A DNA stretch of 64,000 bases from a virus, in the UHGV virus genome UHGV-0311442; one strand, given 5' to 3'. The translations under genes and the position numbers were made by a program. Below are positions 22,135 through 32,170 of this stretch, piece by piece. The notes below the pieces were generated by a model. The model was not told where the DNA came from, did no database searches, and was given only the letters and a program-made list of their open reading frames with translations. Position 1 is the first letter of the stretch, and the number at the start of each line of letters is the position of its first letter.

Positions 22135-22629
22135 TTAGAGGTGTTTTCCGATAACTTCCGAAACTAATTCGTAAAGGTCATCGTCACTGCACACGTCTAC
22201 GCTAATTCCGATATCGATACTACGACTGCGGAACCCTACTTTGAGCGTTTTACCGAATTCGGTTTGTAGGGCTTTATAGAGTCTATTCTTATCTTCTTTA
22301 AAGAGAGGAACAGGTAGTCTAACAGTGAACTTGTAATGTTCTTTCGAAACAAGTTCGTTAGAATAATTAAAACGTTTAGCCACACGGGTTCCGACAATCT
22401 GTGTTATCAGCTTAAACATTTCTTCGTCACTATACGGAGTTGCGCCATAACCGATATCAATAGAATTTCTACGGAATCCTGCGCAGAATAATGCACCGAA
22501 TTGCTCACGGAATTCTTTGTATAGAACATCTTTTTCTACATCCCACAGCCCGTAACCCAAGTCAACAGTGAATTTGTATTTTTCTTTGTCAACTAATTCG
22601 TTAGTGTAATCAAGTCTAGTGAAGTTCAT
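22135..22629 (-). CDS. Hypothetical protein made of two tandem ~80-aa repeats
   Basis: Repeat NELVxKExYKFTVxL...FRxRSIDIG present twice; RBS ggag. Confidence 0.7.
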   Translation of the reverse strand: MNFTRLDYTNELVDKEKYKFTVDLGYGLWDVEKDVLYKEFREQFGALFCAGFRRNSIDIGYGATPYSDEEMFKLITQIVGTRVAKRFNYSNELVSKEHYKFTVRLPVPLFKEDKNRLYKALQTEFGKTLKVGFRSRSIDIGISVDVCSDDDLYELVSEVIGKHL

Positions 22630-22659: not shown

Positions 22660-22713
22660 GTGAGAGCTTTTGTACTCTCACCTAAGTAATATATATCTGA
22701 AATTATTTTTATT
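22660..22713 (-). promoter_or_regulatory. Conserved promoter-like motif plus 5'-UTR hairpin (copy 1 of 4)
   Basis: Plus-strand gtgagag..ctctcac hairpin followed by CTAAGTAATATATATCTGAAATTATTTTT; near-identical motif at 26566-26623, 46526-46579 and 41221-41263. Confidence 0.45.
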
Positions 22714-26658: not shown

Positions 26659-28785
26659 TTAAATAACTACCCAGCTTTTACCATCGGAGCCAACTTGCAT
26701 TAGCGTAATACTTTCAGTGGTCTCAATGGGTTTGGCAAGACCTTCCGTCCCACCCTTTGGAGTGATGAGAACGTTCGAATTTTGCGGTTTAACGGTGATC
26801 GAACCAGCCTTATTTGCCACGATCTGTATATTTCTACCCACGCTATATTCTAGATCAGGAATAGTAAGTTGGCCGCCACGGTTGGTGGCTGGGAAATACA
26901 CATAAGACGATACATCTTCCTCAGATAACACTATACTACCAGAATCACGATTGACCGAGATCTCAAACTTAGAAATATCGATATCGTAGGCAGTAACTTT
27001 CGTAATATCTGTCAGAACCAATTCGTTCAAATTGGTCTTAGCTGTACTGTTCGCCAGATCAAATGGAGTGCCATTCTTGCCGTCAAGCACAGGCGTGACT
27101 TTGATTTTATTGTCACCCGGATAAATGATTTCAAACGTATGCCAGTTATTATCGTACGCACCAAAAGTTCCTAATTGCACATTCTGCTTTTTATGATGCA
27201 TCAGATAAAGATTCGTACCGTCGGTCTGTAAGAAAAAAGACATTAAGTACGGGTTCGTATCAGCCACACCAGCGTCAGCAAGTGTAGTACCAGAAGGTAG
27301 GTCGGACGCGGAAATACGCCAATAAAGTCCTAATCCGAAACGATCTGCTGCTAAATCACCTTTTAGTCTAAAAGTAACGGTCAGACGTCCACCGTAACGT
27401 ATCATGTCCGCAGCAGATGTCATTGACTTAGTTACATTCCAAGGTTTCATCGTTACAGCCTTTCTTAATTCGACGAAATGCCCGTTTCCATCCTCAGAAT
27501 CTTGCACGGTTACGTTACAATCAACGATATTGTTCCAACCCTGCCCTTTCAGGGAACCATCTCCACGACGTCCGTTATAACCCACAGACTCTACTAATGG
27601 GGTATAGCTTCTTACCACATTCATATTGTCTTTGAGCTCTTTAGTGTCGTTCTTCGTCAGGAGCATTGCACCATTCGCTGTTCTTGATAATATCTCAGCA
27701 GCTATTCTCTCTGAGATAATACCGCGTCGTGCCCAAGAACTGAAATGGCTATTCCTTGTTTCAGACGTCCAGTTTTTATTACTACGGGTGGCAGCACCGT
27801 AGTAGGCAGCACCAGCGATATCAGGATCGTCAGTGGGATCATTAGTCGGTACACGTTGGCCATTATCGTCGTACATGAATGGAACAAAAAAGATATTTTT
27901 TTGTTCATTGTTACGATAATTACCGTATATGGTTTCATATTGAACAGGATATTTTTCCTTCCAATAGTAGGTAGTGTCCCCGCAGATCCATGGTACTTCG
28001 GCGGTGTCGTACTCGGGCATCTGAGAGAGATGGTCAGAGAGATCAGTTCGGAAACGCTCTACCATTGCCATAAATAACGCTGGTTGTTGTGCGTAACCTA
28101 CTTTAGTCAGATCATACTCCCCCTGCATCCACACTACAGCCAAGAGTTTATTTTTAGGATTAACGTCCAGAGCTTTTTTGGTCCGGCTAACTAAATCTTT
28201 ATAAAGAGGTTTTTCCACCCCCCATACCGATGACGTCGCAGAGGCTCCTGTGGCTTCATCGAAGGTACCTTCTGCACCACCCGTGAAAGCAGAACCGCCG
28301 CGTGCGCAGGGTACTAGTAAGATACCAGCGTTGCTAGGAATATACGGGAGAAGACGCTTCGCGATGTGTAGACCTTGACCCACACATCCGTATTCACCTT
28401 TGTCCAAATTGGCTTTGGGGTGCGAGAATACGGACATATCTTGCACGTCGTGCAGACAGTGATCCGCTGGAATGACGTCGTTATACTTACAATCAGCACC
28501 ATTAGGCGTTACCTTCGCACGGCGCGCCATTTGTTTAATCCGCGGATCGGGAGCGTCCAACGTCGCTGGTAAAGGCAATCCTTCACCATAACTCATCGCA
28601 TTAGATTGCCCGGCTATAGGGATCACGAAGTAATAATCCGGTTCCGTCACCCCCCCCCCTTGAAGTTCTGCAATATCAATTTTATATTCTTTTTCTTCCT
28701 TAGAAAGGAGAACTACCGCACCTTTGAGATCGCCAGAGAAATTGTCGAGTTCATGGATACGTTTCTTTCCAATTGGTTGAACCAT
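26659..28785 (-). CDS. Tail fibre / tailspike with N-terminal SASA/SGNH-type carbohydrate O-acetylesterase domain
   Basis: IAGQSNAMSYG (GQSN block of sialate-O-acetylesterase-like esterases) near the N-terminus; ~700 aa; RBS ggagg before ATG 28785 (ORF-track TTG at 28797); G10 tract in codons for QGGGV. Confidence 0.7.
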   Translation of the reverse strand: MVQPIGKKRIHELDNFSGDLKGAVVLLSKEEKEYKIDIAELQGGGVTEPDYYFVIPIAGQSNAMSYGEGLPLPATLDAPDPRIKQMARRAKVTPNGADCKYNDVIPADHCLHDVQDMSVFSHPKANLDKGEYGCVGQGLHIAKRLLPYIPSNAGILLVPCARGGSAFTGGAEGTFDEATGASATSSVWGVEKPLYKDLVSRTKKALDVNPKNKLLAVVWMQGEYDLTKVGYAQQPALFMAMVERFRTDLSDHLSQMPEYDTAEVPWICGDTTYYWKEKYPVQYETIYGNYRNNEQKNIFFVPFMYDDNGQRVPTNDPTDDPDIAGAAYYGAATRSNKNWTSETRNSHFSSWARRGIISERIAAEILSRTANGAMLLTKNDTKELKDNMNVVRSYTPLVESVGYNGRRGDGSLKGQGWNNIVDCNVTVQDSEDGNGHFVELRKAVTMKPWNVTKSMTSAADMIRYGGRLTVTFRLKGDLAADRFGLGLYWRISASDLPSGTTLADAGVADTNPYLMSFFLQTDGTNLYLMHHKKQNVQLGTFGAYDNNWHTFEIIYPGDNKIKVTPVLDGKNGTPFDLANSTAKTNLNELVLTDITKVTAYDIDISKFEISVNRDSGSIVLSEEDVSSYVYFPATNRGGQLTIPDLEYSVGRNIQIVANKAGSITVKPQNSNVLITPKGGTEGLAKPIETTESITLMQVGSDGKSWVVI

Positions 28786-28820
28786 TGTAACCTCCAATTT
28801 TTAAACCAATACTCTTCCGG

Positions 28821-29069
28821 TTAGCGCGACATGCCGTTCTGTGATAAGGCAGTACTAACGATAAGTTTAACCGGGGTTTGTTCTTCCGTAATAGGGATTT
28901 CATCGAGATTGTTGATATCAATAGTAACATCATGGACTTTAGGCATTGTTACCAAGATAGTCAACATTACCACCGATGCTTTTGTGGAAGTATCCGCAAC
29001 GTAATATTTAACGTCCAGTAATTCGTTACTTTCAGATAAGTAGAGTATTTGCGGATAGATTGTTATCAA
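28821..29069 (-). CDS. Possible small ORF (82 aa) in the 320-nt gap between fibre genes
   Basis: Only ORF filling the gap; TTG start without a clear RBS. Confidence 0.25.
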   Translation of the reverse strand: MITIYPQILYLSESNELLDVKYYVADTSTKASVVMLTILVTMPKVHDVTIDINNLDEIPITEEQTPVKLIVSTALSQNGMSR

Positions 29070-29106: not shown

Positions 29107-29622
29107 TTAATGATCTCCGAAGGTTAATGCACAATTATCTGCGGTAACGATTAAATCGTCGTCTTTTGTTACTGCGGCTTCTTCACTGTTACCGAAAACC
29201 AGAACAGAGAATTGACCTTTATAACCTAATGAATTAGGTGATACCTGTAACGTTACCGCGTCTTTTCCTACAGTGAAAGAATCATCTGTTAGATCTTCAG
29301 CTTGTAAGTTACTGCCACAAGCTGCGTTAATCGCTTCGATTAAATCGTGTGTGGTAAACCCTTCCCCGGCTACTTTTACCAGAATAGGTTGCTGGTTTAA
29401 CCACCGCTCTGCGGTTAAACGGTTGTAATAGATCTGCAACGTTCTGTTTCCAGGACGCTTAATCTTTACAACGGCAGTGGTATCACGATTCATTTCTTCA
29501 GTAGGATTTACGTTGCTGAACTCAACCTCGTTTTCTTGCAGATCGAGCTGAAGGTCGTAGTTGATCAGCGATATAACCATGTTAGTTGAAGTTAATGATA
29601 AATCTGGTGTGAATTGCCCCAT
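29107..29622 (-). CDS. Paralog family A protein (~171 aa)
   Basis: PDLSLTS...LINYD...IYYNRL...HDLIEAINAACGSNLQAEDL motifs; RBS ggagg before ATG 29622. Confidence 0.65.
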   Translation of the reverse strand: MGQFTPDLSLTSTNMVISLINYDLQLDLQENEVEFSNVNPTEEMNRDTTAVVKIKRPGNRTLQIYYNRLTAERWLNQQPILVKVAGEGFTTHDLIEAINAACGSNLQAEDLTDDSFTVGKDAVTLQVSPNSLGYKGQFSVLVFGNSEEAAVTKDDDLIVTADNCALTFGDH

Positions 29623-29720
29623 AAAGTTTACCTCCAACGGTTAGGGGAGTCATAAAATGTTGGCTAAAACATTTCACCCCTCCCCCGATTATGTTTTCAG
29701 GCACTATGACTTGAAAATAA

Positions 29721-30224
29721 TTAACTAATTCTCAAATCACGTAGTGCGCCTGTTGACTTCATCACGTTTTGGAACGCAGCGCTGATGTTATTAGTCCAGT
29801 AGTAATGCTGTCCGTTAATAACCTGCTGATAGGCCAGCGCGCAGGTGTTGCCACCTAAATTTACGGTAATGTTAGAGGCTCTGCCTCCTTGTAAGTAAAC
29901 CGCTAAAGTAGGCTTTGCGTTGGTAAATATCGTCGTTAGCATTAACTCGATACCTATTAAAGTCCCCACCCCGCAGTTACCCGCGTTTTGAATGGTCCCC
30001 TGATTTTTCTGGTTTAACGGCCAGCTTGGTCCTACTGCGCCCCATTTATTACCTAAAGAATCGCTATATGCAGCGGTTGCAATTTTACAGCCCATAGATC
30101 GTCCCACCATTTGACTCATCATAAAAGGTCTACCCAATCCTAATTTACTACCCGCAGCGCTCATCCATTGTTGGCCAGTTTCATTCTTAGCTGAAGATCC
30201 GTCCCATCCTGACGCTACCCCCAT
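29721..30224 (-). CDS. Tail-fibre tip / receptor-binding protein sharing its N-terminal module with 30241..31032
   Basis: N-terminus GWDGSSAKNETGQQWMSAAGSKLGLGRPFMMSQMVGRS parallels the N-terminus of the Gly-rich protein. Confidence 0.6.
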   Translation of the reverse strand: MGVASGWDGSSAKNETGQQWMSAAGSKLGLGRPFMMSQMVGRSMGCKIATAAYSDSLGNKWGAVGPSWPLNQKNQGTIQNAGNCGVGTLIGIELMLTTIFTNAKPTLAVYLQGGRASNITVNLGGNTCALAYQQVINGQHYYWTNNISAAFQNVMKSTGALRDLRIS

Positions 30225-30240
30225 CTACCCTCCTTTTTAA

Positions 30241-31032
30241 TTAAACACGTGAACCGTATATTGCACCTACTGCGTCCCATCTTGGCGCATTACCAGTAAC
30301 AGCTGCACCAGCTGCTCCGCCGTTATATTCTGTACCGTTACCTTGAGTATTACATCTTCCTCCACCAGCACCGACATTACCACCCGAACCGCCTGTATAT
30401 GCACTAAGAGACCCCTCACCAACAGATCCTCTACCAGGAGCGGAAATAGTACCAGCAGCCGCACCGGAACTCATATGAGAGGAAGACCCACCAGCACCGA
30501 ATGGGCGACCACCGCCACCACCAAATATTAGTCTACCCCTGTTACCGCCGCCACCGCCGCCACCGCCTCCGGCAATAGCGCCACGGTTGGTTATACGCAG
30601 TCTGTTTCCTATTCCGTTCTGTACTGCGGTTCCACCTGCACCGCCTGGCGAGTTAGAACCACCGTTGCCTCCTCTGCCGTATACTGTAACCCCAGGATTG
30701 ATGATGAGTGTAATATACGAATTTGGAAGATTGCTAGGGAATTCTAAACAAGGAACCCCGCTACTATAAGACACTAAATCCCCTGTAATGGTCACAACGA
30801 CAGCAGTAGAGCCTAAAGAACGTAAATAGTTAATAAGCGTATCTTTATTGTAATTGTGATTAGCTCCGATCGAATACTGAACCTCTTTTGATTTTCCCGC
30901 CAATTGCGACATCCAGCCTGGAACCGGCACACCGAGTGTGCGCATCGCGCCAGACATCCAACCATTACCAGCTTCAGCTTTTGCTGAAGAACCAATCCAT
31001 CCGGGAGTCGCTGATACAGACAAAATAACCAC
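30241..31032 (-). CDS. Glycine-rich adhesin-like protein (gp38-like glycine-rich motifs)
   Basis: Multiple poly-Gly tracts (GGGGGGGGGNRG, FGGGGGRPFGAGG) separated by variable segments; shared N-terminal module. Confidence 0.65.
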   Translation of the reverse strand: MVILSVSATPGWIGSSAKAEAGNGWMSGAMRTLGVPVPGWMSQLAGKSKEVQYSIGANHNYNKDTLINYLRSLGSTAVVVTITGDLVSYSSGVPCLEFPSNLPNSYITLIINPGVTVYGRGGNGGSNSPGGAGGTAVQNGIGNRLRITNRGAIAGGGGGGGGGNRGRLIFGGGGGRPFGAGGSSSHMSSGAAAGTISAPGRGSVGEGSLSAYTGGSGGNVGAGGGRCNTQGNGTEYNGGAAGAAVTGNAPRWDAVGAIYGSRV

Positions 31033-31078
31033 CTTATAACGTACTTGTGAGTCAGTGAGGGGAACCCCTCACTGATAA

Positions 31079-32170
31079 TTATAACTTGTTCTCGATTATC
31101 TCCGCCAACTCCTTTATTGCCTCAATAAGTAGAGCTATTTGGGCAGAGTTAGAGACCGTTAAAACGTCCTCACCATTAGCGTCTTTATAAGTAGAAACTG
31201 CTTCAGGTAACACTTTTTGTAAGGTCTGTGCTACAACGCCAGCCTCACGATGAACATTAGTGGATTTAAAGTTCTCCTTTTTGTCGTATATTAAACCTGA
31301 CAATTCCTTTACCTTCTCCAATGCATTAGTTATTGGAGAGAAATTACTTTTCAGCCGGGCGTCAGATCGTATATAAACGTCGTTAAAGTTACCGTTCCCA
31401 CCACAAACCCAAGTACCGTCGTTTTGCAAATAAGCATTGGCATCGGTGCCATTATCAGTACGTGAGTTGTTTATCATGTAAAAGCCGAATTGATAGTTAC
31501 CTAAACCACCAACAAAAAATTTCCTATCAGCATGGTCTTGTCTTAACAATGCCTGAGCAGAACTGGTTCCTACCGGATTAAGACCAAAAATAACGTTATG
31601 GTCTCTCATGCTAATCCAAGAACCTGAGTTGCTGTTAATAGAATATCTATTTGCATAAACCCAAGTATTGGTTCTTATATCTCCGGTAACGTTGAGAGGT
31701 TTATTGCTTTGAACAGCCCCACTCGTAAAGCGTAAAACATGAGCATTATTGGCGTAAACATCTAGAACGCCATCCCCGTTCTGCTTAAAGCCGGTGTCAT
31801 TATCCCCTAAAACTATGGAGTTCCCACCTAAAGCATTGGCGGTTCCAATACCCAATGCTCCATTCAATTGACCGCCAGATAATGGCAACGCCCCAACGTC
31901 GGCAGCAGTTGGCTTGTTTCTCGTATTGTACACGCGACGCCAACCTGGTGAGTAAGTATCGCCGTTAAATACGTAGATAAACTCCGCATTAGTGAGTGCG
32001 CCGGAGACGCTCGTCGTTGTGGCGGTCGTTATACGGATCGTGTAGTTGTTTGTGCTATTGCCATTACTAATCACTTCTATAACGGCCCCAGCTAACGGAA
32101 TAGCCCCCACAACCCGTCTCGCTGTGTGGTATGTGCGCACTAGCGGCATAAGCCCATGCACAGCGAGCAA
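31079..32170 (-). CDS. Tail-fibre distal segment with C-terminal intramolecular-chaperone (peptidase S74-like) domain
   Basis: C-terminus SDARLKSNFSPITNALEKVKELSGLIYDKKE...VSNSAQIALLIEAIKELAEI matches the auto-cleaving chaperone domain of phage fibres and endosialidases; no RBS-supported start; overlaps the upstream fibre ORF by ~100 nt. Confidence 0.65.
   Translation of the reverse strand: MLAVHGLMPLVRTYHTARRVVGAIPLAGAVIEVISNGNSTNNYTIRITTATTTSVSGALTNAEFIYVFNGDTYSPGWRRVYNTRNKPTAADVGALPLSGGQLNGALGIGTANALGGNSIVLGDNDTGFKQNGDGVLDVYANNAHVLRFTSGAVQSNKPLNVTGDIRTNTWVYANRYSINSNSGSWISMRDHNVIFGLNPVGTSSAQALLRQDHADRKFFVGGLGNYQFGFYMINNSRTDNGTDANAYLQNDGTWVCGGNGNFNDVYIRSDARLKSNFSPITNALEKVKELSGLIYDKKENFKSTNVHREAGVVAQTLQKVLPEAVSTYKDANGEDVLTVSNSAQIALLIEAIKELAEIIENKL

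Follow-up and report, generated by a model that had tools for sequence, protein, structure and literature searches.

The viral genome UHGV-0311442, of ~225 kb, was analyzed over a stretch of 64,000 nucleotides (nt), referred to here as the window; all counts given for the window cover these 64 kb. On the minus strand, two adjacent genes directly follow a long tail-fiber gene, and their products, termed gpA and gpB, share an N-terminal domain. On balance, gpA and gpB are probably monomeric adhesins that compete for one docking site at the fiber tip, which would lead to mixed virions of dual specificity. In this reading, a jumbo phage has taken up a fiber-tip cassette of the T2/S16 type. The genes are arranged in the order of the tail-fiber gene, present as two open reading frames (ORFs; 35639-32067 and 32170-31079), a 46-nt spacer, gpA (30241-31023), a 16-nt spacer, gpB (29721-30224), and a gene for a DUF7941 virion structural protein (29107-29637; Pfam DUF7941, 4.9e-17; PHROG 2935).

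Comparison of gpA with gpB by BLASTP yields a sole significant segment, in which residues 11 to 48 of gpA align with residues 6 to 43 of gpB with 21 of 38 positions identical (E value of 1e-8); past this module, BLASTP finds no significant similarity between the two proteins. Both match the Pfam family Gp38_N (PF21721), gpA with 45.1 bits (9.9e-12) and gpB with 67.5 bits (1e-18), against a curated cutoff of 25 bits. The first-pass annotation described two candidate receptor-binding proteins, anchored by a common N-terminal module and completely divergent after ~40 amino acids (aa). All of this is borne out, and the module can be named as the Gp38_N attachment domain. The likeness of the two N termini is best described as homology and neither as chance nor as an artifact of overlapping annotation, the latter because 16 nt part the two genes.

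The solved complex of phage S16 shows one gp38 monomer capping the gp37 trimer via its Gp38_N attachment domain (PMC6851490). Three conserved tryptophans of S16 gp38, located on the tips of the domain's three helices, fill three symmetry-equivalent pockets (PMC6851490). The shared module of gpA and gpB shows two invariant tryptophans and one invariantly hydrophobic position, Trp9, Trp22, and Trp37 in gpA and Trp7, Trp20, and Met35 in gpB, which match the three docking tryptophans whose role was established for S16 gp38 (PMC6851490). The third docking position varies in identity, with Trp in gpA, Met in gpB, Tyr in RB49, and Leu in another homologue.

A multistep mechanism is proposed for the assembly of the tip. 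Here, the C-terminal Peptidase_S74 chaperone would aid the trimerization of the fiber and then cut itself off, leaving three symmetric hydrophobic pockets on the exposed end of the trimer. For RB49-type phages, it is described that gp38 docking follows the removal of the self-cleaving chaperone (PMC9569957). A single Gp38_N monomer would then plug the pockets with the hydrophobic residues that top its three short helices. The plug domains of gpA and gpB are homologous and their putative receptor-binding domains unrelated, with an RB49-like polyglycine sandwich in the former and a small β-sandwich in the latter. With all three pockets occupied by one monomer, an individual fiber should be able to take gpA or gpB but not both. 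Each fiber would hold either gpA or gpB, and coexpression would result in a virion carrying a mixture, with two specificities obtained from a single fiber gene. The two proteins are probably expressed together rather than alternately because their genes are co-oriented and lie 16 nt apart, with a strong ribosome-binding site and an ATG start for gpB.

Profile matches place gpA as a genuine member of the gp38 adhesin family. The protein matches the Pfam family GP38 (PF05268; 5.8e-69) over profile positions 1 to 218 of 218 as well as PHROG 2056 (4.5e-91), and it aligns with the solved gp38 of S16 (6F45_D; E value of 7e-50) from the N-terminal domain to the C terminus, including the run of eight glycines in S16 and nine in gpA. 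The gp38 protein of RB49 is 74% identical to gpA, with near-identical C-terminal loops, and the gpA gene shows 78 to 90% DNA identity to the gp38 genes of many T-even phages and to one phage CMS-2020a record. The architecture comprises the Gp38_N attachment domain, followed by a β-helix and a polyglycine sandwich with glycine-rich motifs (GRMs) and hypervariable loops. The features that define the gp38 family are found together, namely, the attachment domain with three aromatic residues, the C-terminal domain with GRMs and hypervariable segments, and a Peptidase_S74 fiber immediately upstream, which is frameshifted in the window. The glycine-rich protein had earlier been likened to the tip adhesins of T-even phages; its relation to PF05268, 6F45_D, and RB49 goes beyond likeness to full membership.

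The ORF of gpA (30241-31032) encodes 263 aa from a GTG codon or 260 aa from the TTG codon at 31023. The TTG codon is more probably the start because the GTG codon at 31032 sits inside the ribosome-binding site AAGGTGG and because the resulting lead of 9 residues to the first tryptophan equals that of the ATG-started orthologue in the related contig L028. By analogy, gpA probably recognizes the same targets as gp38 of the RB49 type, for which certain O antigens and OmpA are reported as receptors, and it would be placed at the fiber tip as a monomer setting the receptor and host range. The genomes of RB49 and other Krischvirus phages show gp38 ~55 kb away from gp37, with another small ORF in the usual gp38 slot. 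An orthologue of gpA with 212 aa in the related contig L005 (7340-7978) is without 48 residues between two GGAGG motifs (...NSPGGAGG/SSSHMSS...); this in-frame deletion takes out the long glycine run and the neighboring GRMs. It is explained either by recombination between GRMs or by a collapse of the metagenome assembly.

The second protein, gpB, comprises 167 aa, starts with ATG, and has the ribosome-binding site AAGGAGG within the 16-nt spacer. It matches PHROG 1121, a family of short proteins named "tail fiber adhesin" (6.7e-44; profile positions 1 to 173 of 181), and it shows the traits of this family, with Gp38_N joined to the family C-terminal domain and a gene located after a fiber bearing an intramolecular chaperone (IMC). 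The attachment domain covers residues 1 to 45, and the AF2 model predicts a β-sandwich with one helix for residues 45 to 167. Searched against PDB chains, the gpB sequence gives nothing at an E value of ≤1, and the predicted β-sandwich is without a relative of solved structure. There is no PF05268 hit in gpB, and neither GRMs nor a polyglycine sandwich is found, leaving the attachment domain as the only recognizable gp38 feature. The earlier description of this domain as glycine poor does not apply, with 11.8% glycine after residue 48; what gpB lacks is the GRMs.

The best annotated relatives of gpB, with ~60% identity, are ORF66 of the Stx2 phage P13374 and its kin and a second phage CMS-2020a record, and SSU5_022 is 31% identical. 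P13374 is the Stx2 phage of the Escherichia coli O104:H4 outbreak strain of 2011, and its tail fiber adhesin gene ORF66 (L121, 4001-4513) comes after a collagen-repeat fiber also ending in Peptidase_S74. A word-indexed homologue search with gpB gives 9 proteins; the close homologues carry NCBI names from Salmonella enterica assemblies, one of them on a contig of 224.8 kb. Exhaustive searching with HMMER across 1.84 billion representative proteins yields only 53 gpB-related clusters, which span 53 to 309 residues with a single outlier of 798 residues. Most of these clusters share the N-terminal domain alone, which, together with their varied size, indicates that the Gp38_N plug has been joined to many different C-terminal domains. 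The outlier, P0017, matches residues 50 to 87 of gpB five times, which suggests that part of the gpB C-terminal domain occurs as a tandem repeat in this larger protein. The name "adhesin" of the PHROG 1121 family is evidently derived from the N-terminal domain and the gene position, and the literature and structure searches found no function or structure for any member. The adhesin of Pet-CM3-4, considered as an example of the short type, proved to be of the GRM type.

The fiber gene shows a mosaic structure. Its N terminus is a clade-specific anchor, and the shaft contains P2 H-like and P1 S-like modules, with aa 388 to 859 being ~60% identical to the P2 fiber and further tblastn matches to the P1 S and Goslar fibers. 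The distal ORF of 363 aa comprises a Mu gpS-like tip domain followed by the C-terminal self-cleaving IMC, identified by Peptidase_S74 at aa 269 to 325 (Pfam; 2e-15), with a predicted self-cleavage site at ...NDVYIRS/DARLK. Its PDB matches are the Mu tail fiber protein S (5YVQ; E value of 2.3e-36) and gp37 of S16 (6F45_A; E value of 7e-11), and it is 61% identical to the SSU5 fiber. No other ORF in the window bears an IMC, and Gp38_N is confined there to gpA and gpB. In other phages, Peptidase_S74 ends 7 of 7 fibers preceding Gp38_N genes, including those of P13374, SSU5, PEi20, and the contigs L075 and L104. In the related phage Goslar, the equivalent position is occupied by a P1 S-like fiber with a Caudo_TAP chaperone, which marks the fiber-tip system as an exchangeable cassette.

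Orthologous fibers are encoded by single ORFs of 1493 to 1555 aa in the related contigs L003, L005, L012, L028, and L040. In a DNA alignment with the in-frame gene of L028, the window shows one extra G in a run of five G residues (32104-32108), a +1 frameshift that splits the gene into ORFs of 1190 aa and 363 aa. The site reads GGTTGTGGGGGCTATTCC in the window and GGTTGT-GGTGTTATTCC in L028, where the translation is continuous (...SETGCGVIPLAGAVIEV...). Either an error in sequencing the homopolymer or a genuine inactivating or slippage mutation could account for the frameshift.

Gene orders were compared in eight related contigs (L003, L004, L005, L012, L028, L040, L041, and L042). Five of them (L003, L005, L012, L028, and L040) show the order fiber, gpA, gpB, and DUF7941, and three (L004, L041, and L042) show fiber, gpB, and DUF7941 without gpA; gpA alone occurs in none of the eight. 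The gpB-only contigs indicate that gpB is able to serve the fiber alone. Downstream, the DUF7941 gene is found at the same place in every related locus, and this conserved neighbor delimits the variable adhesin slot on that side. Two types of fiber tip and two variants of gpB (~62% identical) are present in all four combinations. These data fit the view, raised in the first-pass annotation, of alternative tips on a common adaptor.

The two gpB variants are 91 to 94% identical in the N-terminal domain and ~50% identical in the C-terminal domain, and gpA of L040 contains other hypervariable segments between unchanged GRMs, amounting to swapped loops. The exchange of hypervariable segments is the classical mode of gp38 evolution and a known signature of specificity domains (Trojet 2011; PMC3157838), and the pattern seen in the alignments of both proteins matches this signature. 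Pairwise dN/dS values are 0.08 to 0.29 for gpB and 0.14 to 0.34 for gpA, corresponding to purifying selection on both, and all six genomes with both genes have an intact gpB. The dS values are 0.02 to 0.14 for gpA and exceed 1 between gpB variants, reaching more than 2. The low values of gpA compared to those of gpB suggest a recent insertion of gpA between the fiber gene and a resident gpB. The resident adhesin of the clade would seem to be gpB, and the source of gpA looks like a T-even phage or another gp38-bearing phage.

The pairing of two adhesin genes is found outside this clade as well. A scan of IMG/VR with the Gp38_N profile gives 79 loci, and 7 of the 77 newly fetched loci contain two Gp38_N genes: four of the jumbo clade, the PEi20 genome, the related T4-like contig L104 of 171 kb, and the contig L075 of 107 kb. 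The PEi20 pair has 34 of 45 N-terminal residues identical and shares nothing else. L075, with a fiber tip of the SSU5 type, carries a short adhesin after the fiber and a GRM-type gp38 1.4 kb downstream. As in the window, the Edwardsiella phages PEi20 and PEi26 (Kanagawavirus), L104, and L075 have two Gp38_N genes with unrelated C-terminal domains after one IMC fiber; they differ in that PEi20 and L104 pair two short adhesins, whereas in L075 the short adhesin comes first and the GRM type second. No description of paired gp38-type adhesins was present in the literature searched, and the arrangement appears to be undescribed although present in deposited genomes. A wider and more tentative proposal is that adhesin multiplexing at a single docking site has arisen in at least three unrelated lineages, namely, the jumbo clade, the T4-like Kanagawavirus, and the 107-kb contig with the SSU5-type tip, with identical fibers being capped at random with different receptor-binding domains.

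Several points weigh against competition of gpA and gpB for one site. gpB has Met where the third docking tryptophan would sit, a position taken by Tyr in RB49 and by Leu in another homologue. The 48-aa deletion in L005 would make gpA dispensable in at least one relative. If the frameshift in the run of five G residues, located upstream of the tip, is real, the docking site may not be made in the source genome. A second IMC fiber may be encoded in the part of the ~225-kb genome beyond the window, and the literature searched held no experiments on short adhesins of the gpB type.

The main rival explanation, which is unlikely, is that only one of the two adhesins is functional in any given genome and that the locus shows a replacement in progress, with the other protein as a passenger. 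In one version, gpB is a relic not yet decayed after a takeover by gpA; in the other, gpB does the work and gpA is a recent and poorly fitting import. The recent arrival of gpA (dS of 0.02 to 0.14), its absence from three relatives, the loss of GRMs through the deletion in L005, and the weak start of gpA in the window (TTG or GTG), compared to the ATG of gpB with AAGGAGG, all agree with such a replacement. Evidence against a replacement comes from gpB, which is intact in 6 of 6 two-gene genomes under purifying selection (ω of 0.08 to 0.29), and from gpA, which is constrained too (0.14 to 0.34) and has swapped its loops in L040. Both gpB variants co-occur with gpA, and gpA is found on both tip types, which argues that two-gene recombinants have persisted; the recurrence of paired adhesins in two other lineages points in the same direction.

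A less probable explanation assumes two fibers for two adhesins, with either gpA or gpB docking without competition on another IMC fiber encoded outside the window. The window covers 64 kb of a genome of ~225 kb, jumbo phages of this group carry several fiber-like proteins, and a 712-aa esterase protein of the window shares the anchor of the fiber. The gene arrangement speaks for a common fiber instead: gpB stands directly after the fiber in the gpB-only relatives, as does gpA in the two-gene relatives. The window contains no other Peptidase_S74 ORF, and a Gp38_N gene comes after its own IMC fiber in every other phage examined.

It is slightly more doubtful still that one of the two proteins is no receptor binder and serves instead in assembly, as a cap, or as a soluble decoy, for instance, as free adhesin blocking the receptors on lysed or infected cells. 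Some GenBank homologues are labeled "distal long tail fiber assembly catalyst," and the C-terminal domain of gpB is without a characterized relative. This label is, however, inherited from gp38 of T4, a different protein (PMC6851490), the assembly family Caudo_TAP is matched by neither gpA nor gpB, and the fiber brings its own chaperone. Moreover, the C-terminal domain of gpB evolves like a specificity domain (~50% identity versus 91 to 94% in the N-terminal domain), and gpB is the sole adhesin candidate in three relatives.

The polyglycine tract of gpA is encoded by nine codons (30544-30570), GGA GGC GGT GGC GGC GGT GGC GGC GGT, and Tandem Repeats Finder reports it twice, as a repeat of period 9 (ACCGCCGCC; 30544-30567; 2.7 copies; 100% matches) and as a repeat of period 3 (30545-30571). 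The DNA repeat described in the first-pass annotation is thus real. The proposed slippage-prone nature of the tract is not upheld by the comparison of repeat length among relatives, in which all eight homologues (the window, L003, L012, L028, L040, RB49, the CMS-2020a record, and Tequatrovirus 310Ecol104PP) have nine glycines, with synonymous codon differences. A run of five glycines follows after seven residues, or after twelve in L040, in these eight homologues. The nine glycines of gpA align with the run of eight in GRM 3 of S16 gp38, which forms the central polyglycine-II helix of the sandwich (PMC6851490). The alignments characterize the tract as a constrained structural element of fixed length. 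A slippage or contingency reading was rejected, with no repeat-number polymorphism among the homologues compared. That the (GGN)9 tract serves as a contingency locus, in which slippage alters the length and modulates the adhesin, is highly improbable despite the perfect period-9 and imperfect period-3 repeat in its DNA, as nine and then five glycines are kept in all eight homologues from four phage groups with differing codons, the eight glycines of S16 lie at the equivalent structural position in the central polyglycine-II helix, whose length in-frame triplet slippage would alter, and the sole length change observed is the 48-aa deletion between GGAGG motifs in L005.

A design for host-range switching, as had been suggested for the gene pair, finds no counterpart in the DNA: flanking inverted repeats are absent, the neighbors include no recombinase family on record, and the genes are co-oriented and 16 nt apart. 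A search for inverted repeats around the genes gives only three short imperfect pairs (17 to 26 nt; 73 to 82% complementary), none of which brackets gpA or gpB, and no recombinase family is on record among the genes neighboring the two. An inversion switch of the Mu G or P1 C type was rejected, with no bracketing inverted repeats and with gpA and gpB on one strand. A tail-fiber assembly chaperone (T4 gp38, lambda Tfa, or Caudo_TAP) was also considered and discarded, neither gpA nor gpB giving such a hit at an E value of ≤0.1.

Among known systems, the gp37-gp38 tip of S16 (PDB 6F45; Dunne et al. 2018 via PMC6851490) and the gp38 proteins of T2, T6, and RB49 are closest to gpA, which is a full-length homologue. 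They have in common the domain with three tryptophans (gpA), the GRMs with a long central glycine run, the hypervariable loops, and the self-cleaving fiber upstream. In contrast to these systems, the genome in question is a jumbo phage related to phiEaH2 and SEGD1 and not a member of the Straboviridae, a Mu gpS-like tip lies ahead of the chaperone, and a second Gp38_N gene follows gpA. The PHROG 1121 adhesins of P13374, phi191, and 75/02 Stx and SSU5_022 are matched by gpB over the full length, and their genes likewise come after a Peptidase_S74 fiber, but there they are the only adhesin gene after the fiber. The Mu G and P1 C segments also provide two specificities from one shaft, and the fiber of the window is partly P1 S- and Mu S-like; those systems, however, present one tip at a time by means of an invertase and inverted repeats, whereas gpA and gpB are separate small proteins without flanking repeats. 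LtfA and LtfB of the T5-like phage DT57C also give more than one receptor-binding protein per virion and a broader host range (PMC4728585). A branched two-protein fiber was proposed for DT57C (PMC4728585), whereas gpA and gpB would share one site and exclude each other.

A perfect hairpin of 10 bp (31053-31074), read from the sequence of the window alone, lies directly 3' of the fiber stop codon within the 46-nt spacer, with the arms CAGTGAGGGG-TT-CCCCTCACTG and no T-run behind. A spacer of ~46 nt between fiber and gpA likewise occurs in L003 and L012, which have the type 1 tip, and in the type 2 tip relatives L005 and L028 gpA adjoins or overlaps the fiber stop. Scans for promoters and terminators in the window gave hits no more numerous than in shuffled sequence, and no tRNA genes are present there.

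A 905-aa virion protein of the window is 73 to 74% identical to those of Erwinia phiEaH2, Stratton, Asesino, Salmonella phage SEGD1, and the SPFM phages, and further ORFs of the window match virion families of jumbo phages. These matches identify the source as a jumbo phage of enterobacteria of ~225 kb, a relative of Erwinia phiEaH2 and the Salmonella SEGD1/SPFM group. The phage collection contains no DNA-level match to the window except gpA and one element of 38 nt, and exact-sequence look-ups in public assemblies gave no match to gpA (with either start) or gpB. Upstream of a gene with its start at 22629, the 38-nt element (22674-22711) matches phiEaH2 DNA without annotation at 100% identity, while the proteins of the two phages are only ~73% identical. 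Its sequence is AT rich (...TCAGATATATATTACTTAGG...), and a role as a promoter or regulatory element conserved in this group of jumbo phages is conceivable.

The 712-aa protein mentioned above (26659-28797) contains a sialate O-acetylesterase (SASA) domain and DUF6645, and its N-terminal anchor motif is common with the fiber. The relatives L003, L004, L005, and L028 carry an anchor-bearing protein of 206 aa in its place. An ORF of 82 aa (28821-29069) just upstream of the 712-aa gene resembles the C-terminal end of this 206-aa protein, suggesting a remnant of a module replacement.

The individual parts of the locus belong to known families, and the locus as a whole can be classed with a known tip-adhesin system, as a variant carried by an unusual host genome. 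The host range of T-even phages is determined mainly by adhesins of the gp38 type, which are also a favored target of host-range engineering. The cassette of the gp38 tip moves between T-even phages, short-tailed Stx phages, phages of the SSU5 group, and jumbo phages, and the locus points to an uncharacterized family of short adhesins whose closest annotated members are carried by the Stx2 phage from the outbreak strain E. coli O104:H4. If the proposed multiplexing is true, it would amount to built-in phenotypic mixing, with two specificities per virion without a switch, a branch, or a second fiber, and the C-terminal domain of gpB would represent a receptor-binding fold not characterized before. 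If two adhesins truly share one tip, the addition of one small gene would be a cheap natural route to a wider receptor range, a design that could be copied in therapeutic phages.

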